NCBI GenBank assembly: GCA_050250895.1
Contig: JBFWNU010000010.1
Span: forward strand, 133,696 to 197,695
Length of the DNA: 64,000 bases
Direction of reading: 5' to 3'
DNA from: Vulcanimicrobiota bacterium
GTDB lineage: Bacteria > Vulcanimicrobiota > Xenobia > Xenobiales > JADMJV01
Under the pieces are notes generated by a model. The model had not been told where the DNA came from and searched no databases. It worked only from the letters and a program-made list of their open reading frames with translations. This document shows, piece after piece, positions 9,921 through 25,435 of this stretch (positions are counted from its first letter, which is position 1; every line of letters begins with the position of its first letter). The translations under genes and the position numbers were made by a program.

Positions 9921-12900
9921 TCACTTCCAGGCGCCCAGGATGACGAAGGGCGCCCAGTAGAAGGGCGAAGCGGTCTTGGGGTTTTGCAACAGCTTCAGCT
10001 GCGCCGTCTGCAGGGCGGCGCTCTTGTTGGCCCCGTTTTTGAGCTGGCTGTAGAACTCGACCATCAGATCGCGGGTCGAGTCGTCGGCGACCTTCCACAG
10101 ACTGGCCACCACGGTGGGAGGTCCGGCCGCCCAGAAGGCCTCGGCCAGACTGGTGATGGAGGATTGCGGATCGGCCTCGCCCAGGCCTGTCTCACAGGCC
10201 GATAGCGTCACCATGCTTGCCTGGTCGAGTTGCAACTCGAAGATCTCGGACGGCGTCAACTCGCTGTGGTTGCCCATCACCAGATAGCTCTGATTGGGGT
10301 CCCGCGGCGAGAGTCGGCCGTGGGTGGCCAGGTGAAGATAGGCCGCTCCGGGAGCGCTGGCCACGAGATGCTCTTTGGTAGCCTCGCCGCCGATGTAGGC
10401 TTGTCCATCGGGAAATAGCTTCTGCAGGGCTTTGACCTCTTCGCCCGCGGCCGGCAGCGTGCCGTCGGGGTTGCCGAAACCAGCGAATTTGCCGGTCCTG
10501 GGGTGGGACGAGGCCAGGTTGGTCAGGTCGCTGGCTTTGGAGAGCACCACCAGTTGATGCTTTTCGACCAAGTAGTGTCCGTCGGGCGCCTGCAACGCCG
10601 CAAAGGGTAGATAGTGCAGCCGCAGGGTGGGCACGATGGCCAGTACCTTCTTGCCAGCGAGATCGGCCTCGACCGGAGCGATCAGCTGGGCGTAGAGAGA
10701 CTTGAGGGCGGCTGGCGGCAGAGACCGTGGGTCCACCAGCCCGCGCCGCACGGTCTGGATGCTCTCGTCGAGTTCGGCCTTGCCCACCTTGAGCGAGCGC
10801 AGGCGAAATGCCTCTGAGGTGACCACGAAGAAGTAGAGGGTGTCCTCGGTGGGAAAATACTGGACCACGGCCGCCTCGGGCGGGATGGAGTGCTGGAGGC
10901 GTCCGAACTCGATCGGTTTGAGGCTGAGGGTGGCGTCGAAGACCCGGGGATTGGCGCTGCGCAACTCGCGAGTGGTCTGCAGGAAGGTGGCCTTGCTATC
11001 GGCGAGCAAGGCTTCGACTTTCTTCAACTGGTCGGGGTTGCGTTGGGCGGCCGGCAAGGATTTGAGGGTCTGGGCCTCGAGTTGCAGGGCCTGGGTCTGT
11101 TGCTGTTGCGAGCGATAGGCGGCGAGAGCCTTCTGGGTGGTCTGGTCCTGGCTTTGAACCTGGGCTCCCAGGGTGGTTACCGATTGGAACTGTCGCTCCT
11201 TGGTGAGGGTCTCGAGAGCCTTCTCGGTCTGGCCAGCCTGGATCTGCAACTCGCCCACCAGAGAGTAGGCCAGCCGCGCCTGGTCGCGCAGGGCGTCGGC
11301 ACCGGCCTGGCCGCCGCCGAGTTGGTCTAGCTCTTGCTCGAGCAAGTCGATGGCCCGCTGAGCGTCGTTGCGGGCGGGGTCGGCCTGGTTTTGGGCTTTG
11401 CGAATGCGGGCTCGCTCGATGAGCGCGTTCACCTCGCCCGAGCGGTAGCCGATGCTCTGGCAGCGCTCGATGGCCGAGTCGAGCGTCTTGAGAGCGAGCT
11501 CGGTCTGGCCGGTGGCAAAAAGCGCTCGACCCAGTCGAGGAGCGACGCCTAGCGAGAGCGTTTCGTCCCCGCCGCGACCATAAAGGTCATTGGCTTTGAC
11601 CAGCTGGTCGAGAACTTCGGCCGCAGGCGCGCCGGATTTTTCGAGCTGGTGAGCGCTCTCTTCGTAGTAACGACCGCGAACGCGCTGCACCAGGCCACCC
11701 TCGGTAAAGCTTTCAGAGCGGTCCCGGCTTGCAAGTTCGCTATCGATCACGGCCAGGATGGCTTCGTTGCGCTCGATCTCGGGCAGTACCTCCTGGAGCA
11801 CCTGGCGGCTCGAGTTCGCATCCGAAGCAGCGGCCAGGTCCAGATAAATCTCGGGCAGCCCCAGGGCGTAGCTGAGGTTGGCCTCGGCGATGCGCAGGTC
11901 GAAGAACTGAACCGCTTCGGCTGCGTTACTTCCCTCGGGCGGGCGAAAGTCCAGAGCCCGCTGTTGGGGCGTAACCTGACCGGCGATGAAGGCCAGGTCC
12001 CCCTCTAACAGTTGGCGGCAGCGCTGGGCCCGAGTCGGGTCGGCCTGATACTTCTGGCCCAGCTCCGCCAGGTGCCTTACCCAGAAGCGCAGTCCGTCGT
12101 TGCCATAACTCGAATCGAGATGGTGGGCGGCCAGCTGGGCCCAGATCTGCTTGTGCGCCTCTAGTTGTGGTTCTAGCCCGAGGCCCGGCTCGCGCTCGAG
12201 TTGCTGCTCGAAAAGCAGGCTGTCGACAAAGTGCTTGACGTCGGGATGGTCGGTTTGGCGGCTCTTGAGCAACCATTCGCGGGCGAGATTGGGGCGGCCC
12301 GAGCGGCGGGCTGCCTGGGCCACCGAGAGGGCAGTCAGGATTCTGAGGTCGGCGGTGGGGAGTTCTGGCAGGCTGATCAGCTCGAGGGCGTCGTAAAGCT
12401 CGGGACCACGCTCGAGCACGGTAGTATTGAGGCCCATCCGTTCGAGGGCAGCCAGGTCGAGGGCTCCGAACAGCCGACGGTAGGGGCGCAGGCCCTGGAG
12501 TTCGGGCAGGTTCTTGAACGCTTCGACCTCGAGCATCAGTTCAAGATCGTCGAGGGCCGCCAACATGATCCCGCAGATGCGGTGGACCATCTGGTAGTTG
12601 CCCAGGTCCAGGGCCAACTTGGCCAGATTGCCTTCTAACTCGATGGTGTTGCCAATCTTGATGACGCGCTCGAACAGTTGGGGGGTGACCAGGCGCACTC
12701 CGGGCGGCGTGGCCGTGGCCGAGACCGCAGCCAGGGGGGTTGAGCGCCAGGTGGATTCGTCTTCGAGCATCTGCTTGGCCCGCAGGTCCTCAGTAAAGTC
12801 GGCAACCCCCAGCTGAGTGTGGAAGACGCGCGCCAGCAGGTTGAGCAGGCGACCCGCGACCGGCTGAAGTTCGGGGTCGTCTTTTTGCATCATCAGTCCG

Positions 12901-13079
12901 CAATACATTACCGACGATATCTGCGGATTGTCGGTCACCAACTTGACCAGGCCCTCGTAGTCGTCAGACTTGGTCAGCTCGACCAGTTGTTGACCGTAGG
13001 CCTCGGGGGTCAGCTCGGCTCGAGCCGGAGAGAACAATAATAAAAGAAGGCAGCACCAGAGACTCGTTCGTTTTAGCAC
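9921..13079 (-). CDS. Secreted TPR + CHAT (caspase HetF-associated) protease
   Basis: Signal peptide, helical repeats, and a CHAT domain with HLATHG and LSACETG catalytic motifs, ending PFYWAPF. Confidence 0.9.
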   Translation of the reverse strand: MLKRTSLWCCLLLLLFSPARAELTPEAYGQQLVELTKSDDYEGLVKLVTDNPQISSVMYCGLMMQKDDPELQPVAGRLLNLLARVFHTQLGVADFTEDLRAKQMLEDESTWRSTPLAAVSATATPPGVRLVTPQLFERVIKIGNTIELEGNLAKLALDLGNYQMVHRICGIMLAALDDLELMLEVEAFKNLPELQGLRPYRRLFGALDLAALERMGLNTTVLERGPELYDALELISLPELPTADLRILTALSVAQAARRSGRPNLAREWLLKSRQTDHPDVKHFVDSLLFEQQLEREPGLGLEPQLEAHKQIWAQLAAHHLDSSYGNDGLRFWVRHLAELGQKYQADPTRAQRCRQLLEGDLAFIAGQVTPQQRALDFRPPEGSNAAEAVQFFDLRIAEANLSYALGLPEIYLDLAAASDANSSRQVLQEVLPEIERNEAILAVIDSELASRDRSESFTEGGLVQRVRGRYYEESAHQLEKSGAPAAEVLDQLVKANDLYGRGGDETLSLGVAPRLGRALFATGQTELALKTLDSAIERCQSIGYRSGEVNALIERARIRKAQNQADPARNDAQRAIDLLEQELDQLGGGQAGADALRDQARLAYSLVGELQIQAGQTEKALETLTKERQFQSVTTLGAQVQSQDQTTQKALAAYRSQQQQTQALQLEAQTLKSLPAAQRNPDQLKKVEALLADSKATFLQTTRELRSANPRVFDATLSLKPIEFGRLQHSIPPEAAVVQYFPTEDTLYFFVVTSEAFRLRSLKVGKAELDESIQTVRRGLVDPRSLPPAALKSLYAQLIAPVEADLAGKKVLAIVPTLRLHYLPFAALQAPDGHYLVEKHQLVVLSKASDLTNLASSHPRTGKFAGFGNPDGTLPAAGEEVKALQKLFPDGQAYIGGEATKEHLVASAPGAAYLHLATHGRLSPRDPNQSYLVMGNHSELTPSEIFELQLDQASMVTLSACETGLGEADPQSSITSLAEAFWAAGPPTVVASLWKVADDSTRDLMVEFYSQLKNGANKSAALQTAQLKLLQNPKTASPFYWAPFVILGAWK

Positions 13080-13120
13080 GGCGGTTGGTTCGGGGCCGGG
13101 CCGGTGGCAACCTATCGGAA

Positions 13121-14245
13121 CTACAACTGACCTTCTGGGCGATGGCCGGAGCGGATGTCTTCGGCCTGGTTGGGAGTGTAGGGAGTCCTGGTCAGGGCCG
13201 GGTCGAGGTGGTGGGCTCGAAAGACGTTGAGGATGAACCGCATGCGGTCGTCAAGGTCGGCATAGTTGCGGGCGGCACTCCCCTCGGTGGTGTCGCCGAC
13301 ACCGAAGCGCTGATGGATGGCCAGCAGCTCGGGGTTCTCGATGGTGCTCAGGGTGGAGGGGAACATCTGGCCGTTGAGGCCCTGCACATCTTCTCCCAGC
13401 TTGATGATCTTGTCCTCGAGGGGTAGCGAGAGGTGGAACCAGGTGATCAGGTGACGTAGACCCGGGGGCATGGCCTGTTTGATTTCGTCCTGAGCGGTGA
13501 TCTGCTCGTCCCACACGATCTGCGCGTTGCCTAGCAGCACCAGTTCTTGCTTCTTCTTGGGGTCGGTCTCGAACTTGGCTCGGTAGTAGCTAGTGAAGCC
13601 GTCGATCAACAGGTCGTCTTTGCCCTTCTCGGCGGGGCCGGGGGTGAATCCGTGCAGAAAGGCCTTGAATTTGGCGGGGTCGGGAGCCTCGACCCCCTCG
13701 AAGGTCTCGATAAAGCGGGCGAAGTGAGGCGTGGTCCGCTTGAAGATGGCGTCGTTGCCGGCCGACATGGCCAGGCTGCTGCGGCTGGTGAGCATTCTGG
13801 CCACGGCCAGCACGCCTGCGCCGAGGCCGGCTCCAACCCAGCCGCCGACCAGCGCCAAACCGGCCATCAGGCTGCCCTGGGCGAGCTTGGAGAAGTCCTC
13901 CTGGCGCACCGTCACGCCCACGTGGCGCGAAGCCCAGCCGGCCCAGTCAAGCCAGCTGAGTCCGCCCTCCTGGCCGACCACCTGGCGCATCTTGCCGGCC
14001 AGGTCGCTGTAATGTTGGGTGATCTGGAGGTTGCGCATGATGCGCGAAGGTTGTCCCATCACCTCGGCGGTGCGGGTCACGGCCACCAGCGGGCGGGCAT
14101 AGGCCCGGCGCGCCAGTTGCGGGTCGCCCAGCGAAGGGCTGAAACTGTCTTCGATCTGGCCCTTCAGGGCAGGACCGATCGGCTCGCGCTTGATGCAAAC
14201 CTGCTGAGCTGCCCGCGTGGGCTGAAATGACCAGAGCTTTATCAC
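13121..14245 (-). CDS. Hypothetical protein (DUF2515-like motifs, one hydrophobic Gly-rich segment)
   Basis: RNLQITQHY, WAGWASRHVG, GNDAIF and GNAQIVWDEQ; GGAGG RBS. Confidence 0.7.
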   Translation of the reverse strand: MIKLWSFQPTRAAQQVCIKREPIGPALKGQIEDSFSPSLGDPQLARRAYARPLVAVTRTAEVMGQPSRIMRNLQITQHYSDLAGKMRQVVGQEGGLSWLDWAGWASRHVGVTVRQEDFSKLAQGSLMAGLALVGGWVGAGLGAGVLAVARMLTSRSSLAMSAGNDAIFKRTTPHFARFIETFEGVEAPDPAKFKAFLHGFTPGPAEKGKDDLLIDGFTSYYRAKFETDPKKKQELVLLGNAQIVWDEQITAQDEIKQAMPPGLRHLITWFHLSLPLEDKIIKLGEDVQGLNGQMFPSTLSTIENPELLAIHQRFGVGDTTEGSAARNYADLDDRMRFILNVFRAHHLDPALTRTPYTPNQAEDIRSGHRPEGQL

Positions 14246-14294
14246 CCGACCTCCACCTCGGAGTCTAGCTCAGGCCTCTGAAAAATTCCTGGAC

Positions 14295-15194
14295 CTAGCG
14301 CCTCGAGAGGGTCTTACCGGTCAGGCGCCAGCCTACCGATTGGCTCGATTGAAAGCGGCCGATGTTGTGGTGAAGGTTGCGGCGCTGACGGCGCGAGAGG
14401 CAACCGAGCAGCTCGCCGCGGTTGGGCAGGGCCAGTCCGTCGAGTCCGACCCGTGAGGCCACCTGGTGGTCATACTCGAGGTCGGTGCCTACGGTGTTCA
14501 AGAAATCGACCGTCTGATTCCACATGCAGCCCAGACCCACCGGCCGGCCGGCGTTGTGAAACTCGCTGGCCAGCCGGCACAGCGACTCGGCTGCCTCACC
14601 GAAGCTGCCCACATAATAGGCCAGTTGGTCGGCGAAGCGCAGCAACAGGGCCTCGACCATGACCTGGGCCCGGCGGTCGGGGGCGAGTTCTTCCAGCAAG
14701 AGGCGATAGGTCGCCACCGGGTCTAGCTCGTCAAAACGGGTGCCAAACGAGCGCCTGACCTCGGGAAAGAAAGGAAAATCGGTACGGGCGACCAGCGCCA
14801 TCGCTTCTTTGACGTGCTGGTGGGTCCAGCCGAACTTGCGCTCGAGCAAGTCGAGATTGTCTTCCATCCAAGCCAGCGTTACGGGCACCCGGGCCGGTGT
14901 TCCGCGCTGGACCGTGCCACACTCGAGGCGGCGGGGATCGGCGTCGTGGATCAGGGCCACCTCGACCAGGAACTGCCTTCTCTCTTCGCCGATGCCCCAG
15001 CCCTGGGCCATCTGATCGAGCAGCTCGGCTACCATCACGGGGTGACGTGTGTCGTGATAAAGGCCACTGTTGAGGTCTTCGAACTCGTCAACACCAAAGT
15101 AGCCGGTCGCACACGTGCGCCGACTCTGGTGTCTCTGTCTGCGGTAGACCCACAGGCCGCTCAGGGCGAGCCCGCAGGCAATAAGATAGGCCAC
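14295..15194 (-). CDS. Membrane-anchored HD-superfamily (PDEase-like) protein
   Basis: N-terminal TM; YHDTRH, ALIHDAD and LRFAD motifs. Confidence 0.6.
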   Translation of the reverse strand: MAYLIACGLALSGLWVYRRQRHQSRRTCATGYFGVDEFEDLNSGLYHDTRHPVMVAELLDQMAQGWGIGEERRQFLVEVALIHDADPRRLECGTVQRGTPARVPVTLAWMEDNLDLLERKFGWTHQHVKEAMALVARTDFPFFPEVRRSFGTRFDELDPVATYRLLLEELAPDRRAQVMVEALLLRFADQLAYYVGSFGEAAESLCRLASEFHNAGRPVGLGCMWNQTVDFLNTVGTDLEYDHQVASRVGLDGLALPNRGELLGCLSRRQRRNLHHNIGRFQSSQSVGWRLTGKTLSRR

Positions 15195-15241
15195 GTTACC
15201 AGGCTAGCCTTGTGAGCCAGTTCATTCAGTGATCTCGATCA

Positions 15242-16282
15242 CTATTTCGGTTTGACCAGCCCTCTCAGCACCTTGTGATTGGACCTCAGGTCGGCTTCGG
15301 GATAGTCTTTGACCAGCTTCTCGTTGTAGCTGATGGCCTCTTCCAGCAGTCCGTACTGCATCAGGGTCGCCAGCACCTCCAGGCGCTGGTCTCTGGTTCT
15401 AGCCGATTTCTTCAGCCGGGCCAGTCGCTCGGCGGTGGCTTTGTCGAGGATAGTAAATTCGAGTTTTCCACGAGCCACGCCACTTTGCACGCTCAAAGTG
15501 TAGTTGCCGGGCTCGAGGGCCTGGCCGGGACGAAGGCTGGGACCCTTGTAGTAGATCTTCTCGCCTTTCGAGATGACCACCGTATAGGGTCCGGCGATGG
15601 CGGGATGGGCCATCACGAACTCACCCCTCGAGAAGACCGTGGACTCGCCGAGGGCCAGCGGTCGCGGTTTAGGCCTGGCGGGCTTTGGGAGAGGAGGGGC
15701 CGAGCCGGCGACGCCTTTGGTGTTATAGACGGCGGTCCGTCGAGGGGGAGCGCTACCGCCTGGAACTGATCCATCCTCATCGGCCGGCTTCTTGTCGTCG
15801 GGGATTTCGGTTTCCACAGCAGGTCTGGCCACCGGCTTGGACTCGTAGGCCACCGCTTGAGGCATCAGGTGGGCCTGCAGCTTGCCGCCAGCACGTTGAA
15901 TCCGGGCATCACCGGGGGTCATCAGTTCGATGCCAGCCCCGGCCTCGCGGTCGACCGAGCCCTTGCCCTCGAGCTTGCGGGCCCCGCCTTCTTCGAGCAA
16001 CACCTTGCTAGGACCCATGATGGTCTCTTTCTGACGGGTCTGAAGGTAACTCAGGCGCAGCTTGCCGCCGGCCGCCACCGACACCTCGGCCCCGGCCGGA
16101 AGAATCTGCAAGGCCTGGGCCGGGTAGCTCTGGCCGGAAGCCCGAACCGTGACCCCGCCGTTAGACTCGAGCACCATGGCCAGGCGCTGCTCACCGGCGC
16201 TGGCCGAGAGGCCTATCCAAAGGGCCAGCAGCAGGCCCACAGCATACTTCATCTTCATGGCTGGTTGTGTCGTCATGCTCAC
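15242..16282 (-). CDS. Exported hypothetical protein, FecR-like N-terminal beta domain
   Basis: Signal peptide; beta-rich GGVTVRA...LPAGAEVSVAAGGKLRLSY; Pro-rich linker; helical C-terminus. Confidence 0.65.
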   Translation of the reverse strand: MSMTTQPAMKMKYAVGLLLALWIGLSASAGEQRLAMVLESNGGVTVRASGQSYPAQALQILPAGAEVSVAAGGKLRLSYLQTRQKETIMGPSKVLLEEGGARKLEGKGSVDREAGAGIELMTPGDARIQRAGGKLQAHLMPQAVAYESKPVARPAVETEIPDDKKPADEDGSVPGGSAPPRRTAVYNTKGVAGSAPPLPKPARPKPRPLALGESTVFSRGEFVMAHPAIAGPYTVVISKGEKIYYKGPSLRPGQALEPGNYTLSVQSGVARGKLEFTILDKATAERLARLKKSARTRDQRLEVLATLMQYGLLEEAISYNEKLVKDYPEADLRSNHKVLRGLVKPK

Positions 16283-16352
16283 GAAGATCTTCCTTTCGGC
16301 TCATGTGAGCTGGATCCTATACCGGGGTCTCGCTCAAGCGTATACTCAAAAA

Positions 16353-16721
16353 ATGTCACACATAACCAGAATCGCCACCCGCATGCTCGAGCGCGAGCTG
16401 CTCGAGGTCGCGGCCCGCCAGCTGGGCCTGGGCATCACGGATGGACCCACCACCGTGACCGACTACGAGGGGCGCACCCAGCCGGTCGATTTCAAGCTCG
16501 ACAGCCGCCCCTACGCCCTGGGTTTCGTGCGGACCGAGTCCGGTTTCGAGGCGGTGGGCGATCTCATGGGTGGAACGGCCGAGACCTTGCGGTGTCTGCA
16601 GCAGCAATATGCCCGGGCTGCCACCCTGCGTCAGCTAGAGGAGCAGGGATTTTCGGTGGTGGAAGAGACCGCCGCCGACGGTAGCATCCGCCTGACCCTG
16701 GAGCGACTGGTCTATGCATAG
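16353..16721 (+). CDS. DUF1257 (Ycf35-like) protein
   Basis: MSHITRIAT, VTDYEG, LGF, QQQYA and QGFSVVEETAADGSIRLTL. Confidence 0.85.
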   Translation: MSHITRIATRMLERELLEVAARQLGLGITDGPTTVTDYEGRTQPVDFKLDSRPYALGFVRTESGFEAVGDLMGGTAETLRCLQQQYARAATLRQLEEQGFSVVEETAADGSIRLTLERLVYA

Positions 16722-16914
16722 TCAGCGAATTCAGGTCCACATTGATCGTGAGGGCAAGGTCAAGCTGGAGGTCGAGGGAATGCAAGGCCAGGGCTGCCTG
16801 GAGTTGACAGCTGCCCTCGAGGCCCTGCTCGGCGGCCAGATCAAGGATCGCGAGATGAAGCCCGAATACTACGAGCGGGCCGAAGCCTTCGACCACGACA
16901 ACCTGTGGAGCTGA
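16714..16914 (+). CDS. DUF2997 small protein
   Basis: IDREGKVKLEVEGMQGQGCLELTAALEALLG...KPEYY. Confidence 0.85.
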   Translation: MHSQRIQVHIDREGKVKLEVEGMQGQGCLELTAALEALLGGQIKDREMKPEYYERAEAFDHDNLWS

Positions 16915-17453
16915 GAATCGCTGACATGGTTTTCTCCAGTCGGGCCAACGGGCCGGGACTGCGAGCGGTGGTCTGGGTCCAGGGCTGCAGTCTCGGTTGC
17001 GCCGGATGCTTCAATCCTCACACCCACAGTTTCCGGGCTGGCAGGGTGATCCAGGTGCCTGACCTGATCGATCGACTGCGGGACCTTCCGGTCCAGGGTT
17101 TGACCCTCAGTGGGGGCGAGCCGCTACAGCAGCCCCGGGGTGTGCTGGCCCTGATCGCCGGGCTCAAAGCCGTGACCGATTTCTCGATGTTGCTCTTCAC
17201 CGGCTTTGAGTGGGGAGAAATTCAGGCTTCACCGGCTCGCCGGGCCGTGGTCGAAATGTGCGACCTGGTGGTGGCCGGACGGTTCGAGGCCGGCCAGCAC
17301 CAGGGCCGAAATCTGCTGGGGTCATCCAACCAGACGGTCCACTTCGTGACCCCCCGCTATCGTCCATCTCATCTAGAGCAGGTTCCCCCCGCCGAGGTCC
17401 TCATCGGCCCCAACGGCGACATCGTGCTGACAGGAGTCAACCCCCCGTTATGA
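16905..17453 (+). CDS. Radical SAM protein, NrdG/activase-like
   Basis: NGPGLRAVVWVQGCSLGCAGCFN (CxxxCxxC), TLSGGEP and GSSNQ. Confidence 0.9.
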   Translation: MELRIADMVFSSRANGPGLRAVVWVQGCSLGCAGCFNPHTHSFRAGRVIQVPDLIDRLRDLPVQGLTLSGGEPLQQPRGVLALIAGLKAVTDFSMLLFTGFEWGEIQASPARRAVVEMCDLVVAGRFEAGQHQGRNLLGSSNQTVHFVTPRYRPSHLEQVPPAEVLIGPNGDIVLTGVNPPL

Positions 17454-18973
17454 GCCTGGCTGGCGAACTGACTTTGCGGGTGCGAGCCCGGTCTTGCCTG
17501 ATCGTGGTGGTCAGCCGCGAGGAAGAGAGGGTGGCCAACCTGCTGGCCGAGGCCTGTCTGGAGATGAATGCGGGCCTGGTGCAATGGGACGTGGCCGGCG
17601 GTTTCCAGACCAGGATGGGCCCGGCACTCGAGGCCAACGCCGCCGACCCCCGCAAGGCGCTCGAGGCCATCAAGGCCAGTCGCCAAGTCAAGCGAGCCGT
17701 GCTGTTGCCCGATTTCCACGATCTCTGGACCAACCCTCAGCTCAAGCGCATGCTCAAGGCCTTGACTCACGACCTGCGGCAGGGGCAGACGACCCTGGTG
17801 GTCACGCTGCCGTCCCGGACCATCCCCGAAGAACTGGTGGACGAAGCGGTGGTGCTCGAGTTGCCTCCTCCCGACCGAGACGAGCTGGACAGGTTGCTGA
17901 CCACCCTCACCAGTGGCTGTCGGGTCGAATTGACCAGCCTTGGTCGTGACAAGCTGCTGACGGCGGCGCTGGGCTTGACCATGGCCCAGGCCCGCCGGGT
18001 CTTCGCCAAGGCCATCGTCAACGACGGCGTGCTCGACGACCGAGACATCGAGCTGGTCCAGCAAGAGAAGCGACAAATCATTCGCGAGAGCGGCGCCCTC
18101 GAGTTTTTGCCGCCCCTGGCCGACGCCGCCTGGGTGGGCGGCCTGGACGTGCTCAAAGACTGGCTGCGTCTGCGCGAGCGGGCCTTTACGGCCGAAGCCA
18201 GGGAATATGGCCTGCCCGCCCCCAAGGGCGTGGCCCTGGTGGGCATCCCGGGCACCGGCAAGAGCCTGACCGCCAAGATGGTGGCCGCTCTCTGGAAGGT
18301 GCCCCTGTTGCGGCTTGACGTGGGGGCGCTGTTCGGCGGGCTGATGGGTCAGTCTGAAGAGCGCACCCGACAGGCCCTGGCTCTGGCTGAAACGGTGGCT
18401 CCCTGCGTGCTCTGGATCGACGAGATCGAGAAGGCCACCCAGGCCAACGAGATGGGCACCGGCACCACTCAGCGCGTCATCGGCACCATTTTGACCTGGA
18501 TGCAAGAGAAGACAGCCCCCTGCTTCGTGGTGGCCACGGCCAACGACGTGGCGAAGATCCCCGCCGAGCTGATGCGGCGCGGGCGCTTCGACGAGATTTT
18601 CTTTCTCGACCTACCCACTCACGACGAGCGCCGTCAGATCTTCTCGGTGCACCTGCAACAGCGCCACCGTCTGAGCGCCAACTACGACCTCGAAAGGCTG
18701 GCCGGCGCCAGCCAGGGCCTGGTGGGAGCCGAACTCGAGCAAGCCATCGTCGAGGCCATGTATACAGCCTTCAATCACGACCGCGAGTTCACCAGCGACG
18801 ACATCGTGAGCGCGCTCGAACGCCTGGTGCCGCTGTCGGTGTCGTGTCGCGAGACGGTCGAATACTTGCGCGGCTGGCTGCAAGAAGGCCGGGCCCAGTC
18901 GGCTTCGTTTCGCGAGAATCGCGAGGCCAGCGTCAACTTCGTGCCCCTGCCGAGCCCGTTCTCGAGCAACTAG
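17450..18973 (+). CDS. Ycf46-like AAA+ ATPase
   Basis: Degenerate N-terminal [30 protein letters not shown] and [14 protein letters not shown]; ATGA overlap with the radical SAM gene. Confidence 0.92.
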
Positions 18974-19131
18974 GGCCTGTCAGGGATTAAGAGTAGCATT
19001 CCGGGCGCTGAGGCGCCCCTGTGGCAAGGCGCGTCTGACCGCGCATATCGGCAATATGTAAGGGAAGCGCAACGCAGCCACAGGGGATGGATCGGAGCCC
19101 CGAATGCACGAGTTATGTCCTGACAGGCCCT
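18972..19131. mobile_element. MITE-like non-autonomous element, ~160 bp
   Basis: 13-bp terminal inverted repeats agggcctgtcagg / cctgacaggccct and nested internal IRs (gcattc/gaatgc, cccctgtggc/gccacagggg); no transposase. Confidence 0.75.
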
Positions 19132-20585
19132 TAGAGCAGTTCGAAGTCTTCGATGGCGATGTCGGAGGGCCCGGCCTCGACGATGGGGGCCGATTGCGTG
19201 GCCAGTTCTACCTCGAAGCGACCCTGAAAGGCGATGACCTCGGCCACGAAGTGCCAGTTGCGCTCCCAGCCGTGCTCACAGAGTCCTTCTCCGATCCAGT
19301 CATAGAGCAGGTCGTAGACCCCCAGCGAACAGGGCGAGGCCAGATCCCGCACGGCATGCAGCGACACCTCGCGGCCGCGGGCGATGGCCACCAGTTCGTG
19401 GTGCGGACACAACTGGGCGCAAGTCACCCGTCGGCGCTCGTCGCCATGAAGTTCGCCCAGCATGCTGGCCTTCTTCTGCCGGCCCGAGGCGATCGTTTCG
19501 GCCTGGAGCTGACTGGTGCGCACCTCCCAGCGGCGCTGGTCGATGCAGAGGTAGCCATCCTCGAAATAGACCTGGTTGCCTCCGGGTAGCTCGAACTGGC
19601 TCCAGTGGCTCCACTGGGCCGCCAGCACCAGGACTCGGGTCGGGCCCACGACGGCCACCGCTCCCCGCGAGCCCTCGCCACCCACCACTTTGAGGATGGG
19701 CTCACCCAGACTGATACGCTGGTCGGGTTTGCCGACCCAGAAGTTCTCTCCCTCTGCGATGACCAGATCGTGGTCGTTGGCCACCGCGTAGAGGGCGTTC
19801 GAGGCGCACTTGCCGAGCAGCTCTGGCCTGGCGAAGGTCCGCCAACGATAGACCTGGCCGTTGGCCAGGCGCACGGCCAGGGTGCGACCGTCGTGGTTGA
19901 AGCGAAGCCCGGCCACCCGTCGGGGGAACCCATGCTGATTGCGCACGATAGGGTAGGGCAGATAGCGGCCGTCGGCTTGAGGGCAAAGTTCGGTCAGGCG
20001 GTGGAAAAAGTCCCGGTCGGCCGGGCCGGCCGGCTCGAACTCGCGCTCGACCAGATGCTTGACGATGAGGGCGGCGGCGGCTGGTGAAGCCTGTCTGAGC
20101 AGCCGGTAGGCGCTGTGGTCGTCGACCATCTCCAGGCGGGTGCGCACTTCATCGAGGCCGAGGTCGTTCGAGAGACCTTCGCTGCGACTATCATCGAGGG
20201 CGGCCAGCAACTCGGGGCGACCGAGCTTGCGCAACTGACTGAGCACTTGCCGGCGCACCTCCAGGGGGGCCTGCCGATAGGCCTGTCCCAGCAGCTTGCC
20301 GCCTTCGAAGTCGAGCCGGTCGTAAGCCTTTTCGCGCCCGAGCAGAAAGAGCACCAGAGCGGTGCGGTGGGGCGGCAGCTGGCCGGCGGCCAGAGTGCCC
20401 TCGAGTTCGCGGCAGTCCATGGCCTTTTTCGGCCAGAAGCCTCGTTTGGAAGCCTCTGGCTTGACGCGCCAATCGGGAGGAGACGGACTGGCCGTCAGGA
20501 CAGGGGGGGCGTTTTTGGTTACAGCGGCCGTGGGTTCGCGAGGGCGGTCTAGAGAGGTGAACCAGTTGGCTATCGCCTTGAACAT
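19131..20585 (-). CDS. Helical N-domain plus degenerate WD40/beta-propeller-like protein
   Basis: LFLLGREKAYDRLDFEG; WD-like VAGLRFNHDGRTLAV...VYRW; acidic tail GPSDIAIED. Confidence 0.65.
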   Translation of the reverse strand: MFKAIANWFTSLDRPREPTAAVTKNAPPVLTASPSPPDWRVKPEASKRGFWPKKAMDCRELEGTLAAGQLPPHRTALVLFLLGREKAYDRLDFEGGKLLGQAYRQAPLEVRRQVLSQLRKLGRPELLAALDDSRSEGLSNDLGLDEVRTRLEMVDDHSAYRLLRQASPAAAALIVKHLVEREFEPAGPADRDFFHRLTELCPQADGRYLPYPIVRNQHGFPRRVAGLRFNHDGRTLAVRLANGQVYRWRTFARPELLGKCASNALYAVANDHDLVIAEGENFWVGKPDQRISLGEPILKVVGGEGSRGAVAVVGPTRVLVLAAQWSHWSQFELPGGNQVYFEDGYLCIDQRRWEVRTSQLQAETIASGRQKKASMLGELHGDERRRVTCAQLCPHHELVAIARGREVSLHAVRDLASPCSLGVYDLLYDWIGEGLCEHGWERNWHFVAEVIAFQGRFEVELATQSAPIVEAGPSDIAIEDFELL

Positions 20586-20624
20586 GCCATAAGCATAGCC
20601 GGGGGGGGCACGTGATGTCTGTGA

Positions 20625-22151
20625 TCAGGCTAACTTTACCACCGGGTAGCGATCCAGCACCCAGAGGTTGGTGACCAGGTCCAGCGCGCTGACCACCAGG
20701 CGCTTGCGCTCGTCGATGGCAAATTCGACCTGGAAACGGCGCTGGCCGTAGGCAGCCGGCGGGTCGGCCAGCAAGAAGGTGGGAGCCTCTTCGTTCATCC
20801 AGAAGCGACTTCGCCGCTCGGCCTCGCCGGCCTCGACCTGACGGAGTCGGGCCCCGCCGTTGCCGTCAAAGACCAGCTCGGTGGCCTGGCGCGGCCGGGC
20901 CCGCGACATCTCGAAGATAGCCAGGCCGAGCTGACGCTGACCCTCATAGTTGGCCTTGACCACCATACGGGCCACCGGCCCCTCGGTTGGATAGGTGGTG
21001 CCGGGCTTGACCAGGGTCTGAAAATGCTCCTTCTCGCTGGCCGGATCGACCCAGCGAATAGCATACTCGTGCTGGATATGGTCGAACAGCTCGCCGCCGC
21101 CCAGCCAGGTAGCCGCCCCCAGGGCCACCGCCTGCATGGGGTTGTCGAGGCGCACCCGCGAGGCGCCGAAGATGCGCTTGACCTGACTTTGCACGGCCGG
21201 GATCAGGCTCGAGCCGCCGACCATGAAGACGGCCATCACCTGGTCTTCGTCATAGCCCCGCTCGCGCGAGGCGGCCAGGGCCCGACGAATGGTGCGGTCG
21301 ATGGCGGCAAAGCCATCCCTTTCCTCAACCAGGCGCTCGAAACCGGCTCGGTCGAGTGAAAAGCCCAAGGCTTTGCCGGTGGCCGGGTCGACCAGGCTCA
21401 GCTCGCTTCGCTCCACTTTGGACAATCGTTCCTTGAGTCCCTCGCATTCGGCCAGCAGGGCCGCGCTCAGCGAGACCACGGTGGGGTGGTCGGGAGTGAG
21501 ATGGTGATGGGCCAGCACCGCCTCATAGAGCCAGCCGTCGAGGGTGGCCCCGCCCAACTCTTCGCCGGCCTTACCCAGCACGCGGCAACCGTTCTCTTCT
21601 ACCCGCACTACCGACACGTCGAGGGTGCCGCCGCCGAAGTCAAAGACCAGGTAGACATGGCCCCGCTGGGCATTGACCTGATAGCCCAGGGCGGCGGCGC
21701 TGGCTTCGTCGAGCAGACGCAGACGCGGGCAGTCGGCCCGTTCGGCCACTTCGGCCAGCCAGTTCTCGTAGAACTCGAACGATTCCACCGGCACCGTGAA
21801 GGCGACCTCGCCGCCTTCGCTGCCCAGTTCGCTCAGGCCGCTGCGCAACACCGTCTCGAGAAAATCGCCAGCGGCCTGGGCCACGCTGATGGTGCGGTCG
21901 GCGATGCGTCGCTTGATGGGGCTGCGGTGGAGCAGATAGCGCTTGAGCCAGCGAAAAGTGTGAGGATGGTGCAGCAGATTGCGGCTTCTGACTTGCTGAC
22001 CCAGCCAGCGGCGCCCCTCGGCTTGATAGTGCAGCAGCGAGGGCACCACCCCGTCGAGGCTGTAGTCGGGCAGTTGCAGGACCTGAGTCTGGTCGCGGTG
22101 CCAGTGGGCCAGCACCGTGTTCGAGGTGCCAAAGTCGACAGCCAGGCTCAA
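20625..22151 (-). CDS. Atypical Hsp70-family protein (no C-terminal lid)
   Basis: AVDFGTSNT, LDEASAAALGY, VFDFGGGTLDVS and VGGSSLIPAV; TTG start overlaps the GrpE-like stop; ~508 aa. Confidence 0.9.
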   Translation of the reverse strand: MSLAVDFGTSNTVLAHWHRDQTQVLQLPDYSLDGVVPSLLHYQAEGRRWLGQQVRSRNLLHHPHTFRWLKRYLLHRSPIKRRIADRTISVAQAAGDFLETVLRSGLSELGSEGGEVAFTVPVESFEFYENWLAEVAERADCPRLRLLDEASAAALGYQVNAQRGHVYLVFDFGGGTLDVSVVRVEENGCRVLGKAGEELGGATLDGWLYEAVLAHHHLTPDHPTVVSLSAALLAECEGLKERLSKVERSELSLVDPATGKALGFSLDRAGFERLVEERDGFAAIDRTIRRALAASRERGYDEDQVMAVFMVGGSSLIPAVQSQVKRIFGASRVRLDNPMQAVALGAATWLGGGELFDHIQHEYAIRWVDPASEKEHFQTLVKPGTTYPTEGPVARMVVKANYEGQRQLGLAIFEMSRARPRQATELVFDGNGGARLRQVEAGEAERRSRFWMNEEAPTFLLADPPAAYGQRRFQVEFAIDERKRLVVSALDLVTNLWVLDRYPVVKLA

Positions 22152-22627
22152 ATCGGCTCGACCCCCGCCGCCACCAGCACCTCTTCGCCAAAGGCCAGGC
22201 CGGGCACCCGCACTCGAACCGGCGACCCGGTGGCCAGCTCGAGAGCAGCCAGGGGCCGGTGGCGATTGAGGTCGAAGGCGACTTCTTGCCCCACCTCGCC
22301 GACCCACACCAGGCCCTGGGCCTCCAGCGTCGAGAAGATCCGTCTGACCACCGTCAGCACATCGGCGGCCGTGAACTGGCCACCCTCGACCAGGGCCGAT
22401 TGCAGAGCCAGCTGGCAAAGGGCCGGACCCATGGCCTGCAGCAGCTCGCGCCGGGCGGATTCGGCCTGGCGAGGCCCCGCCTGGGCCAGCCGCCCCACCT
22501 CGGCCTCGAGGCCCGAGACCTTAGCGGCCAAATCCTGGGTTTCTAGACGCAGCTCACCCAGCTGGCGGGTGGCCTCGAGGTAATCCTGGCGGGGAACGGC
22601 GCCCAGTAGGCGGTGGAGCCACTGCAT
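22148..22627 (-). CDS. GrpE-like protein
   Basis: Coiled coil followed by GEVGQEVAFDLNRHRP...VRVRVPG beta head; coupled to the Hsp70 gene. Confidence 0.8.
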   Translation of the reverse strand: MQWLHRLLGAVPRQDYLEATRQLGELRLETQDLAAKVSGLEAEVGRLAQAGPRQAESARRELLQAMGPALCQLALQSALVEGGQFTAADVLTVVRRIFSTLEAQGLVWVGEVGQEVAFDLNRHRPLAALELATGSPVRVRVPGLAFGEEVLVAAGVEPI

Positions 22628-22646
22628 GCCCGCTCTTTCGCCCATG

Positions 22647-22676
22647 AAAAAAGCCCGGCCTGCCGGCCGGGCTTTT
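22647..22676 (-). terminator. Rho-independent terminator (possibly bidirectional)
   Basis: aaaaaa-gcccggcc-tgcc-ggccgggc-tttt just after the 22689 stop. Confidence 0.8.
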
Positions 22677-22688
22677 GGCAAGAGGCGC

Positions 22689-23990
22689 CTACTGAGTGAT
22701 GCGCCAGTTGTCGGTGGCCACGCCCAGGAAATCGAACTGGGTGTTGCTCTCGAAGTCGATGCGCACCGTCTGGCCAGCGAAGGCCGAGATGTCGGCGGTG
22801 AACTGGGTCATCGGCGTCACCTGGGTGGGGGCGCCAGGGTCGGTGGTGAACAAAGTGGCCAGCACGGCATCGGTACCGGTGTTGCGCACGGTGACCCGCA
22901 GATACTCGTTGGCGGCGTCGAACGGAAAATTGGTTCCCAGTTGATACTCCATTTGCCAGCGCAGCGTGGTGGCGTTGGCGGGAATGGCCACATCCTGGAA
23001 CATGCGGGCCGTCGAGGCTTGATTCTCGCAGACGAACTGCAAGTCGGTGCCGTGAGTCGAGGTGAAGGTATGGGGGAAGAAGTTGGCCTGGAAGGTGTTG
23101 GCCTCGTTGGCCATGTTGAAGAAGTCGACCACCGCGTCACCGTTCATGATGGGAAGGCCGTTGGTGGTGATGCCCTGGGTTTTGCCGGCGACGGTGCCGG
23201 TCTGCTGCAGGGTCCAGCCGGTATAGTCGCCGGTCTCGAAGCTGCCGTTGGCCAGCACGTCGGTGACGTTGAACGGGTTGCTGGCGCCGTTGCCGCCGGT
23301 GACCGCGGCCACCAGCACGTAGCCGTTGCCGGCGTTGGAGATGCGCAGATTGTTGAAGGTGGCCACACCGTTGACGGTGGTGGCGGTGGTGGTGCCCTCG
23401 AGGGTCGCCCCGCCGGGGTTGGCGCCGAAAACGATGGTGACGGTGGCAGCGGTGTCGATCAGGTTGCCGAAGGCGTCGCGCACTTCGACCACCACGGCCG
23501 GGTTGATAGCAAAGCCCGACAGCGTGTTGGTGGGCTGGGTGGTAAAGGTCACCTGGGTGCCGCCGGCCGGGGTGATGGTGAAGGGATTGCTCACCGCCGA
23601 CAGCAGGCCGGGAGAAGTGGCCGTGAAGGTGTAGGTGCCAGCCAGGTTCACCGAAAGATTGTTGAAGGTGGCCACGCCGTTGACGGCGTTGACGGTGGTG
23701 GTACCCGCCAAAGTGGCTCCGTTGGGGGTGGTCAGGGCAAGGGTGATGGGATTGGTCGCCGTGGTCACTACCTGGCCGTCAAAGTCGAGCACGGCCACTT
23801 GAATCGGGCTAAAGGTGGTGCCAGCCACGCGGGCCACAGCCGTTTGAAAGGCCAGCCGCACGGGTGCGTCGTTGTTTTGGAAAGTGGTGGGCGGAAATTC
23901 ATTGCCGTCACCGGTGCTGCCGGCGTCGCAGCCGGCCATGAAAAGTGCCAGGGCGACGGCCACCAGCACACCTAGAGTCTTCTTGAACAT
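22689..23990 (-). CDS. Lipoprotein with two Ig-like repeats and a C-terminal beta-sandwich/CBM-like domain (copy 2)
   Basis: Lipobox FMAG-C; NGVATFNNL occurs twice; LANGSFETGD. Confidence 0.85.
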   Translation of the reverse strand: MFKKTLGVLVAVALALFMAGCDAGSTGDGNEFPPTTFQNNDAPVRLAFQTAVARVAGTTFSPIQVAVLDFDGQVVTTATNPITLALTTPNGATLAGTTTVNAVNGVATFNNLSVNLAGTYTFTATSPGLLSAVSNPFTITPAGGTQVTFTTQPTNTLSGFAINPAVVVEVRDAFGNLIDTAATVTIVFGANPGGATLEGTTTATTVNGVATFNNLRISNAGNGYVLVAAVTGGNGASNPFNVTDVLANGSFETGDYTGWTLQQTGTVAGKTQGITTNGLPIMNGDAVVDFFNMANEANTFQANFFPHTFTSTHGTDLQFVCENQASTARMFQDVAIPANATTLRWQMEYQLGTNFPFDAANEYLRVTVRNTGTDAVLATLFTTDPGAPTQVTPMTQFTADISAFAGQTVRIDFESNTQFDFLGVATDNWRITQ

Positions 23991-24130: not shown

Positions 24131-25435
24131 CTATTGGGTGATGCGCCAGTTGTCGGTGGCCACACTCAGGAAGTCGTTCTGGGTGTTGCTTTCGAAGTCG
24201 ATGCGCACGGTCTGGCCGGCAAAGGCCGAGATGTCGGCGGTGAACTGGGTCATCGGCGTCACCTGGGTGGGGGCGCCGGGGTCGGTGGTGAACAGGGTGG
24301 CCAGCACGGCATCGGTGCCGGGGTTGCGCACGGTCACCCGCAGATACTCGGTGGCGGCGTCGAACGGAAAATTGGTCCCCAACTGATATTCCATTTGCCA
24401 GCGCAGGTTGGCGGCGTTGGCGGGAATGGCCACATCCTGGAACATGCGGGCGGTCGAGGGATCGCCTTCGCACACGAACTGAAGATTGGTGCCATGGGTC
24501 GAGGCGAAGGCGTGAGGGAAGAAGTTCGGCTGCAAGGTGCTGGCGGCTTCGTTGGCCATGTTGAAGAAGTCGAACACTGCGTCACCGAGGTTGACGGTGG
24601 TGCCGTTGGTGGTGATGGCCTGGGTCTTGCGGGCGACGGTGCCGGTCTGCTGCAGGGTCCAGCCGGTGTAGTCGCCGGTCTCGAAGCTGCCGTTGGCCAG
24701 CACGTCGGTGACGTTGAACGGGTTGCTCGCGCCGTTGCCACCGGTGACCGCGGCCACCAGCACGTAGCCGTTGCCGGCGTTGGAAATGCGCAGGTTGTTG
24801 AAGGTGGCCACTCCGTTGACGGTGGTGGCGGTGTTGGTGCCCTCGAGGGTGGCCCCGCCGGGGTTGGCGCCGAACACGATGGTGACGGTGGCGGCGGTGT
24901 CGATCAGGTTGCCGAAGGCGTCGCGCACTTCGACCACCACGGCCGGGTTGATAGCAAAGCCCGACAGTGTGTTGGTGGGCTGGGTGGTAAAGGTCACCTG
25001 GGTGCCGCCGGCCGGGGTGATGGTGAAGGGGTTGCTTACCGCCGACAGCAGGCCGGGAGAAGTGGCGGTGAAGGTGTAGGTGCCGGCCAGGTTCACCGAA
25101 AGATTGTTGAAGGTGGCCACGCCGTTGACGGCGTTGACCGTGGTCGTGCCCGCCAAAGTGGCCCCGTTGGGGGTGGTCAGGGCAAGGGTGATGGGGTTGG
25201 TAGCCGTGGTGACCACCTGGCCGTCAAAGTCGAGCACGGCCACTTGGATCGGGCTAAAGGTGGTGCCAGCCACGCGGGCCACAGCCGTTTGAAAGGCCAG
25301 CCGCACGGGTGCGTCGTTGTTTTGGAAACTGGTGGGCGGAAATTCATTGCCGTCACCAGTGCTGCCGGCGTCGCAGCCGGCCATGAAGAGCGCCAGCACA
25401 CATAGGGCTAGCGTCAGAATACTTCGTTTCAACAT
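24131..25435 (-). CDS. Lipoprotein with two Ig-like repeats and a C-terminal beta-sandwich/CBM-like domain (copy 1)
   Basis: Near-identical paralog of 22689..23990; GGAGGG RBS. Confidence 0.85.
   Translation of the reverse strand: MLKRSILTLALCVLALFMAGCDAGSTGDGNEFPPTSFQNNDAPVRLAFQTAVARVAGTTFSPIQVAVLDFDGQVVTTATNPITLALTTPNGATLAGTTTVNAVNGVATFNNLSVNLAGTYTFTATSPGLLSAVSNPFTITPAGGTQVTFTTQPTNTLSGFAINPAVVVEVRDAFGNLIDTAATVTIVFGANPGGATLEGTNTATTVNGVATFNNLRISNAGNGYVLVAAVTGGNGASNPFNVTDVLANGSFETGDYTGWTLQQTGTVARKTQAITTNGTTVNLGDAVFDFFNMANEAASTLQPNFFPHAFASTHGTNLQFVCEGDPSTARMFQDVAIPANAANLRWQMEYQLGTNFPFDAATEYLRVTVRNPGTDAVLATLFTTDPGAPTQVTPMTQFTADISAFAGQTVRIDFESNTQNDFLSVATDNWRITQ

Follow-up and report, generated by a model that had tools for sequence, protein, structure and literature searches.

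A seven-gene module joining a lidless Hsp70 to a Ycf46-type AAA+ ATPase, and its possible role in protein remodelling

Do two short runs of genes that converge on opposite strands belong to one system, and what might such a system do? The question is raised by a 64,000-nucleotide (nt) stretch of a Vulcanimicrobiota bacterium genome (contig JBFWNU010000010.1, positions 133,696 to 197,695; the window hereafter). In it, a plus-strand arm encodes a DUF1257 protein, a DUF2997 protein, a radical S-adenosylmethionine (SAM) enzyme and a Ycf46-type AAA+ ATPase, and a minus-strand arm encodes a GrpE-like protein, a lidless Hsp70 and a WD40-like protein. To our knowledge, Ycf35 (DUF1257) and Ycf46 are conserved open reading frames (ORFs) of cyanobacteria and algal plastids for which no mechanism has been known for decades. 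An earlier interpretation made from the DNA letters (the sequence-only reading) proposed that the two arms form one dedicated machine for protein remodelling or modification, possibly for stress response or anti-phage conflict. It knew of no functional description of the combination, and our literature searches likewise found no description of the seven families together, with subscription-only papers and supplements outside the search.

The two arms are linked across genomes

The alignment of the Hsp70 clade was scanned over one genome per species, which gave 227 confirmed relatives, and the best 80 loci were kept. Full-flank loci, in which the sequence extends 7 kb or more upstream of the Hsp70 gene and 3.5 kb or more downstream, number 41. 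The host groups, read off record titles and counted by eye, are 43 Chloroflexota, 12 cyanobacteria, 6 Verrucomicrobiota, 3 Obscuribacterales, 3 Armatimonadota, 3 Moduliflexus/UASB14, 2 Planctomycetota, 2 Eremiobacterota, 2 Burkholderiales, 1 Desulfobacterales, 1 Thermaerobacter and 2 unlabelled. With the window proteins as tblastn queries, 58 of the 80 loci gave a match to DUF1257, 51 to DUF2997, 40 each to the radical SAM enzyme and the AAA, 27 to the WD40-like protein of 484 amino acids (aa) and none to the GrpE-like protein. All 7,066 ORFs of the loci were clustered, and the cluster profiles were then used for the family counts in Table 1.

All seven families occur together in 13 of the 80 loci, and Hsp70, AAA, WD40, DUF1257 and DUF2997 in 34. 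The usual order, on one strand, is AAA, at least one gene for a HEAT-WD40 protein of ~740 aa, GrpE-like, Hsp70, DUF1257, DUF2997 and radical SAM. In three loci (L058, L078, L091) the order matches that of the window without the inversion, all on a single strand; in most other loci the genes all lie on the same strand and are often contiguous. The arms are physically linked across at least 10 phylum-level groups.

A reverse search with the radical SAM alignment against metagenome contigs yielded 80 loci, and the 25 of at least 11 kb were counted. DUF1257 is present in 21 of them, DUF2997 in 22, AAA and WD40 in 17 each, Hsp70 in 14 and the GrpE-like family in 8. At least one of Hsp70, AAA and WD40 accompanies the radical SAM gene in 22 of the 25 and none does in three. 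In one metagenome locus (L165) the radical SAM gene stands alone, though 10 kb are present on either side.

The co-occurrence sample consisted of 301 genomes of the window's phylum, and the lists were matched by eye. The Hsp70 clade was called at E <= 1e-90, because the three other DnaK-like genes of the window's own genome, all ordinary, reach at most 76 bits against the clade model. DUF1257 is present in 18 genomes, the Hsp70 clade in 16 and both in 15, so that DUF1257 is found in 15/16 genomes with the clade versus 3/285 without it. The genome with Hsp70 only (G106) is 65% complete, and those with DUF1257 only are G005 together with G090 and G094, which have short partial matches. These co-occurrences are not independent events, since the Hsp70 carriers belong to only six genera. 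In one genus (g6), DUF1257, DUF2997, radical SAM and AAA lie on one contig (L193, L194) and Hsp70 (~900 bits) on another, while in two others (g8, g9) the order is DUF1257, DUF2997, Hsp70, WD40, AAA, radical SAM (L189, L197).

Two unrelated operons that converge by chance in this genome would account for the opposite strands and the 157-bp gap between the arms in the window, and for the parts being unlinked in g6 and two other genomes. This explanation is, however, contradicted by the linkage and co-occurrence counts and by the loci elsewhere, mostly on one strand and often contiguous, and we find it hardly credible. Linkage of the arms in other genomes had been named beforehand as the point on which the idea of one system would stand or fall; the neighbourhood counts, the reverse search and the co-occurrence even on separate contigs show the arms to be linked or co-inherited. 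The recurrence over the 80 loci, the 25 metagenome loci and the 301 genomes puts the gene order far beyond chance, and the seven genes are one conserved functional module. The dedicated unity of the arms that the sequence-only reading proposed is thereby borne out; that this unit remodels or modifies proteins is what we infer.

All seven ORFs were found where the sequence-only reading had placed them, and a Pfam profile scan of the seven window proteins is the basis of the family calls (Table 1). The plus-arm coordinates give overlaps of 8, 10 and 4 nt between successive genes, consistent with the translational coupling suggested for these four genes, and the ATG start of the AAA gene shares bases with the radical SAM stop, as ATGA. 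On the minus strand, the TTG start of Hsp70 overlaps the TGA stop of the GrpE-like gene, as TTGA, and a 39-nt gap separates Hsp70 from the 484-aa gene. A promoter and terminator scan of positions 15900-23000 gave counts no higher than those of shuffled sequences.

Table 1. The seven genes in the window, the basis of their assignment, and the number of Hsp70 loci in which each family was found by cluster profiles.
Feature	Position	Strand	Basis	Full-flank loci	All loci
DUF1257 (Ycf35-family) protein, 122 aa	16353..16721	+	Pfam PF06868, E 2.2e-13	37/41	59/80
DUF2997 protein, 66 aa, predicted DUF1257 partner	16714..16914	+	Pfam PF11211, E 2.1e-17	37/41	56/80
NrdG-like radical SAM enzyme, 182 aa	16905..17453	+	Fer4_12 E 8.5e-31; Radical_SAM E 3.9e-7	25/41	40/80
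Ycf46-family AAA+ ATPase, 507 aa, N-domain and one AAA module	17450..18973	+	PF00004 E 9.8e-30	26/41	38/80
HEAT-WD40 (putative receptor) family, short divergent member, 484 aa	19131..20585	-	hhalign to family	38/41 (~740-aa family)	59/80 (~740-aa family)
Lidless Hsp70, 508 aa	20625..22151	-	PF00012 E 2.6e-32		
GrpE-like nucleotide exchange factor, 159 aa	22148..22627	-	family-level GrpE matches	25/41	54/80

The encoded proteins and a candidate remodelling mechanism

We read the module as a receptor-guided, ATP-driven, two-motor machine for protein remodelling that would serve stress-linked housekeeping and not immunity; we put the probability of this reading, whose mechanism we infer, at about one half. 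The HEAT-WD40 proteins would be variable, interchangeable receptors or scaffolds, one to seven per cluster and its fastest-evolving part, and they would dock through a near-invariant C-terminal tail (RFDIE...GEFDIEI-COOH). The lidless Hsp70 would hold or prime the bound target and be recycled by its own GrpE. The Ycf46-type AAA ring would supply the mechanical work, with DUF1257:DUF2997 as its adaptor or regulator, and the two motors would act in series on the receptor-held target. Outside the oxygenic lineages, the NrdG-like enzyme may add a radical, oxygen- or redox-sensitive step on a partner other than ribonucleotide reductase.

The alignment of the Hsp70 with DnaK (2v7y) takes in the nucleotide-binding domain and the beta part of the substrate-binding domain; it reaches chain residue 463, and the protein stops 13 residues on, which agrees with its description as lidless in the sequence-only reading. 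The protein belongs to a large and well-conserved clade of short Hsp70s of ~530 aa, ~50% identical to the window's copy and spread across phyla, whose members are named only "Hsp70 family protein" or DnaK in the sources. The ATPase motifs DxG, K70, E149 and DxGGGT are invariant in 24 of 24 clade members, and in the clade alignment the interdomain linker differs from that of DnaK. Also as noted earlier, no J protein is encoded in the module: neither the seven genes (Pfam) nor the representatives chosen for the conserved neighbour families match DnaJ, though no search for a dedicated J protein was made in the rest of the genome.

For the GrpE-like protein, the assignment rests on the family and not on the window's copy, which alone has no Pfam or NCBIfam family match. 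Within the family, 27 of 34 members match Pfam GrpE (PF01025; best E 4.8e-12), and the family profile finds the solved GrpE 4ani (E 1.9e-7) over 14-172 of its 175 positions. The label GrpE-like, given from the sequence alone, is thus upheld for the family only.

The nearest solved relatives of the AAA are VAT, p97 and Cdc48. Walker A and B are intact, and the motifs of a classic AAA module (Walker A, Walker B and an arginine finger) are conserved in 33 family members; judged from the alignments, Hsp70 and AAA both retain their ATPase motifs. In an Atlas search of predicted models, the N-domain (residues 1-245) reaches a template modelling (TM) score of 0.92 to clusters automatically named "ycf46 family", and its aligned part is labelled PF30482, a lead that comes from predicted models. 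An orthologue was found in five of five genomes checked, with 57-60% identity to the window's AAA, and in two of them it is unlinked. These genomes also hold Ycf46-like paralogues with 42-44% identity to the window's AAA, which suggests that the cluster's AAA forms a separate clade; the Ycf46 label therefore holds at the family level and not at a finer one. One cyanobacterium carries three Ycf46-like AAAs (58, 43 and 42% identity) and five DUF1257 genes, that is, extra paralogous sets.

The DUF1257 family keeps an N-terminal M-S-H and a QRYAY-type motif in its alignment, and in DUF2997 G14, G22, G25 and C28 are invariant. The AlphaFold2 model of DUF1257 is a sheet-and-helix platform with a predicted local distance difference test (pLDDT) score of 88.9; Foldseek against the PDB gave nothing at E <= 0.001 (best 0.08). 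Pairwise complex prediction, a check put forward with the sequence-only reading, was run for DUF1257:DUF2997 and scored 0.68 versus 0.00 for the best of three controls. Among solved complexes, 116 of 157 attain this mark, and among mismatched pairs 2 of 215 do; both counts are only approximate here, since the alignments were our own. At least 76% of contacts recur between runs, the partner pLDDT is at least 54, and in the predicted interface a DUF2997 strand (residues 5-10) joins the last DUF1257 strand (112-117). The modelling thus predicts that the two proteins bind each other.

In a wide comparison with VIA, the DUF1257 model came closest to KA1-type platform domains, with a Z of 7.0, in a range rated common, and no fold was assigned. 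A search for fused forms of DUF1257 found three longer proteins, none with an informative extra domain. Two loci (L034:2511-2918, L048:5729-6142) have, besides the copy after Hsp70, a second, longer DUF1257 paralogue that adjoins AAA or WD40 genes.

The HEAT-WD40 proteins of ~740 aa begin with HEAT repeats, followed by a conserved helical domain in the middle and then a WD40 propeller; full-flank loci hold 0 to 7 copies. The window's 484-aa protein has no WD40 Pfam match. Aligned to the family with hhalign (probability 98.8%, E 1.1e-16, residues 61-323), it is homologous over the helical domain and the first blades only. A word-based search found one close relative (78% identity), and an exhaustive profile-free search found only remote relatives of 600-800 aa, matched over residues 58-280. 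In its model (pLDDT 67), a helical domain predicted with confidence precedes a beta-rich region of low confidence; searched against the PDB, the model gives 247 matches at E <= 0.001, of which those listed are WD40 proteins. The earlier description of this gene as propeller-like fits the HEAT-WD40 homology and the structural matches, and is tempered by the missing Pfam match and the low-confidence beta region of the model. Similar forms of 476-482 aa come after Hsp70 in Obscuribacterales.

The extreme C-terminus of the HEAT-WD40 family is almost invariant and reads RWRxRFDIE[IV], some ten residues, then GEFDIE[IL]; the window's copy has the variant RFEVEL...EDFELL. This two-part motif occurs in 60 of the 7,066 locus ORFs, and 58 of the 60 belong to the HEAT-WD40 cluster. 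In a family that otherwise evolves fast, this acidic-hydrophobic tail is conserved more than any other feature (L016-L095). In some lineages the receptor candidates diverge faster than the rest of the cluster: between two loci (L041 and L043) they are 55% identical, versus 97-98% for Hsp70 and AAA; among Thermanaerothrix relatives, HEAT-WD40 keeps pace with Hsp70 at 77-89% identity.

The radical SAM enzyme resembles NrdG in size, in its CxxxCxxC and SAM-binding motifs and in its best family match. All 20 aligned members have C28, C32 and C35 (CxxxCxxC) and SGGEP, and at the level of sequence the enzyme keeps both its cluster and SAM motifs. It differs from NrdG in scoring below the cut-off (105.1 bits with TIGR02491, its best NCBIfam match, versus 126.1) and in its tie to DUF2997 and DUF1257. 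Its PHROGs match is phrog_626. The window's own genome, 99.64% complete, gave no match to the NrdD or glycyl-radical domains (PF13597, PF01228), profiles that matched in 6 and 3 of 14 control genomes, respectively; without these domains in its genome, the enzyme is not a ribonucleotide-reductase activase here. The glycyl-radical motif is of the RVxG type, and none was seen on reading the DUF1257 and DUF2997 alignments, although a radical site of another kind may exist. The gene lies directly after DUF2997 in most non-cyanobacterial loci; it is present in 0/15 cyanobacterial and Obscuribacterales Hsp70 loci versus 40/65 others.

In a different account, small [4Fe-4S] proteins are what the module acts on, to mature, repair or regulate them; the partner of DUF1257:DUF2997 would be the NrdG-like enzyme here and Fed7 in cyanobacteria, and the Hsp70 would be HscA-like. 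Passages of a review describe a conserved cyanobacterial cluster, DUF2997-DUF1257 (ycf35)-fed7, in which the product of fed7, a [4Fe-4S] ferredoxin, binds a DnaJ-like protein, as well as DnaJ-Fed7 fusions in photosynthetic eukaryotes (PMC4284462). The position of a [4Fe-4S] radical SAM enzyme right after DUF2997 fits this account, as do the best NCBIfam matches of the Hsp70, which are HscA models (E 1.3e-40 versus 7.4e-32 for DnaK), and the module shares with HscA-HscB the trait of a specialised extra Hsp70 beside ordinary DnaK. All HscA and DnaK scores are, however, far under their cut-offs (139.5 versus 620 for HscA), the protein is lidless, and the cluster contains no HscB or IscU. The account is further weakened by the absence of the radical SAM gene from the cyanobacterial and Obscuribacterales Hsp70 clusters, where no conserved gene was seen after DUF2997, and by the phage trio described below, which has no annotated iron-sulfur protein alongside; the WD40 receptors and the AAA would be left unaccounted for. 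A rhodanese-domain gene, a further point for the iron-sulfur account, lies beside the cluster in 9 of the 80 loci, in two arrangements (L030, L047, L051, L067, L077, L080, L081, L084, L095); it may reflect a sulfur link or only shared ancestry. Taken together, we consider iron-sulfur maturation rather improbable.

Among known systems, one of the closest to the proposed remodelling machine is DnaK-GrpE with ClpB, a bi-chaperone disaggregase made of an Hsp70 and an AAA+ protein. Our module also encodes an Hsp70, a GrpE-type factor and an AAA+ protein, with the ATPase motifs of both putative motors intact. It differs in that its AAA is a single-module, classic-clade protein of Ycf46 type, nearest to VAT, p97 and Cdc48 and distinct from ClpB, and in that its Hsp70 has no lid, another linker and no J protein found; the WD40 receptors, DUF1257, DUF2997 and the radical SAM enzyme have no counterpart in DnaK-GrpE-ClpB.

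The Ycf46 and Ycf35-DUF2997-fed7 genes of cyanobacteria and plastids share with the module the DUF1257 and DUF2997 families and the type of AAA N-domain. They also have an iron-sulfur protein beside DUF2997 and, in the passages of the two sources, links to a J protein and to stress (PMC4284462, PMC13683863). In the latter source, a 2026 study, passages describe a three-gene ycf46 operon of S. elongatus that is induced by severe oxidative stress and light-dark transitions, depends on guanosine tetraphosphate (ppGpp) and encodes a KaiC-interacting AAA (PMC13683863). The module differs from these clusters in the separate clade of its AAA and in its Hsp70, GrpE-like and HEAT-WD40 genes, which the cyanobacterial Ycf35/Ycf46 clusters are described without.

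Distribution, mobile copies and the choice between roles

Several observations weigh against the stress-linked housekeeping machine. The module is accessory: neither DUF1257 nor the Hsp70 clade was found in a genome of the same genus (G088, 98% complete), and among 15 genomes of the same family DUF1257 is in one and the Hsp70 clade in none. The full cluster also occurs on a 226-kb plasmid, pPg_01 of Pseudanabaena galeata CCNP1313 (L199, 121374-140945), with a transposase adjacent; RelE/ParE and PIN toxin-antitoxin genes interrupt it before the GrpE gene. The trio of AAA, DUF1257 and DUF2997 is present in phages, and PHROGs has families for all three. As to mechanism, pore loop 1 of the AAA reads LMGQSE in the window and LVGESE in the family, and the missing aromatic residue argues against processive unfolding. 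Canonical cycling of the Hsp70 is not assured, since no J-domain partner was found and the linker is unlike that of DnaK, so that neither motor need work canonically. Finally, the docking role given to the tail is pure conjecture, the reading leaves the part played by the radical SAM enzyme unaccounted for, and the substrate, binding and activity of the machine are all putative.

Genomes of two genera of the window's phylum (g26, g21) carry the AAA-DUF1257-DUF2997 trio without the Hsp70 arm. Among phages, Rhizobium phage RHph_I4 (108 kb, a lytic size; L188, 60899-64221) carries four successive genes, for an ATPase, a hypothetical protein, DUF1257 and DUF2997. The AAA matches its PHROGs family over the full length (E 1.1e-140); in phage records its relatives match over residues 166-493 only, and 0 of 132 records cover 80% of the query. 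The DUF1257 alignment against viral contigs gave seven pattern matches, none confirmed. Corndog-type Mycobacterium phages carry an AAA related to that of the window. On pPg_01, an "ATP-binding protein" gene and a hypothetical gene are inserted between DUF1257 and DUF2997, and the genes of the cluster bear generic RefSeq names only.

A conflict role stays alive because the distribution is accessory, copies exist on a plasmid and in phages, and the receptors vary. In such a system, anti-phage or otherwise, the variable WD40 proteins would sense the invader, Hsp70 and AAA would set a threshold or execute the response, and the radical SAM enzyme or the AAA would be the effector. The patchy distribution, the toxin-antitoxin genes and transposase of the plasmid copy, the 0 to 7 fast-diverging receptor copies and the likeness of the AAA to the IetA/IteA anti-phage ATPases at the level of the AAA domain all fit, as does the presence, 3 kb upstream in the window, of a gene for a CHAT-TPR protein. 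The hosts include many Chloroflexota and many cyanobacteria of filamentous or colonial habit, and passages of Kaur et al. (2020) describe chaperone-based conflict systems in multicellular prokaryotes that resemble the module in combining Hsp70 and GrpE in multi-gene NTPase systems enriched in multicellular bacteria (PMC7159879).

The Hsp70 systems in those passages are, however, centred on GTPases and tubulin and have another gene set, with FNIII, DnaJ or TPR proteins beside the GTPases; the passages make no mention of DUF1257, DUF2997, a Ycf46-type AAA or an NrdG-like enzyme (PMC7159879). No effector domain is recognisable in the module, and the CHAT gene clusters with no ORF of the 80 other loci. 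PADLOC-DB 2.0 gave only generic AAA matches (IetA, TRIP13) and a weak one to PDC-M61B (E 7.3e-5), no match for five of the seven proteins and no defined system. Hsp70 and AAA are 50-60% identical across phyla, and the flanks examined elsewhere hold housekeeping genes: LpxB, an ABC exporter, a SpoU methylase, an MFS transporter, a rhodanese, a YbaK-type editing protein, an AIR-synthase-related protein and a methyltransferase. Among Thermanaerothrix relatives, flank synteny is stable. The anti-phage option of the sequence-only reading gained no support from the PADLOC search or the flanks, and we regard a conflict role as unlikely, if still worth keeping in mind.

We favour stress-linked housekeeping over both immunity and iron-sulfur maturation because the module is highly conserved, its flanks hold housekeeping genes and the cyanobacterial data point to stress. 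A bolder form of the remodelling machine would be one of a new kind, in which chaperone motors and radical chemistry converge on one protein. Interchangeable WD40 receptors would deliver this target to a Ycf46-type AAA ring and to an Hsp70 that works without a lid or a J protein, and an orphan NrdG-like activase would place a radical or radical-derived modification on DUF1257, DUF2997 or the captured target. This form is speculative and, in our estimate, improbable. If it were true, Ycf35 and Ycf46 of cyanobacteria and algal plastids would be its reduced, oxygen-tolerant remnant.

The cluster gives the Ycf35 and Ycf46 families a defined set of partners, namely a private Hsp70, an exchange factor, tailed WD40 receptors and an orphan radical SAM activase, and the question of their function becomes one of concrete binding and activity experiments. 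It would likewise offer an example of an Hsp70 whose cluster encodes no J protein, and of an NrdG-type enzyme whose genome yielded no glycyl-radical enzyme. Copies in the cultured strains Pseudanabaena galeata CCNP1313, Thermanaerothrix daxensis GNS-1 and Anaerolinea thermolimosa IMO-1 make such tests feasible.

Neighbouring genes

An MFS transporter gene recurs beside the cluster in 12 loci. On a Verrucomicrobia contig without DUF1257, an ORF of 3241 aa lies directly before the short Hsp70 (L087:9-9734); the 2244 aa scanned have no Pfam match.

On the minus strand of the window, positions 9921-16282 encode the CHAT-TPR protein (1052 aa; CHAT is caspase-like), followed by ORFs of 374, 299 and 346 aa that have no Pfam match; the last of these has a signal-peptide-like N-terminal segment. 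Like the CHAT-TPR gene, the three ORFs do not cluster with any ORF of the 80 Hsp70 loci, so that the four genes look like a separate unit.

On the other side of the cluster, 22689-23990 and 24131-25435 (minus strand) are paralogues in tandem (433 and 434 aa); both match Glyco_hydro2_C5 weakly and below threshold, and the product of the first has a hydrophobic N-terminus. A hairpin absent from the terminator-scan list was read by eye at 22647-22676 (minus strand), with a perfect 8-bp G+C stem (GCCCGGCC, loop GGCA, GGCCGGGC) followed by TTTTTT; it sits between the stop of the first paralogue and the GrpE-like gene.

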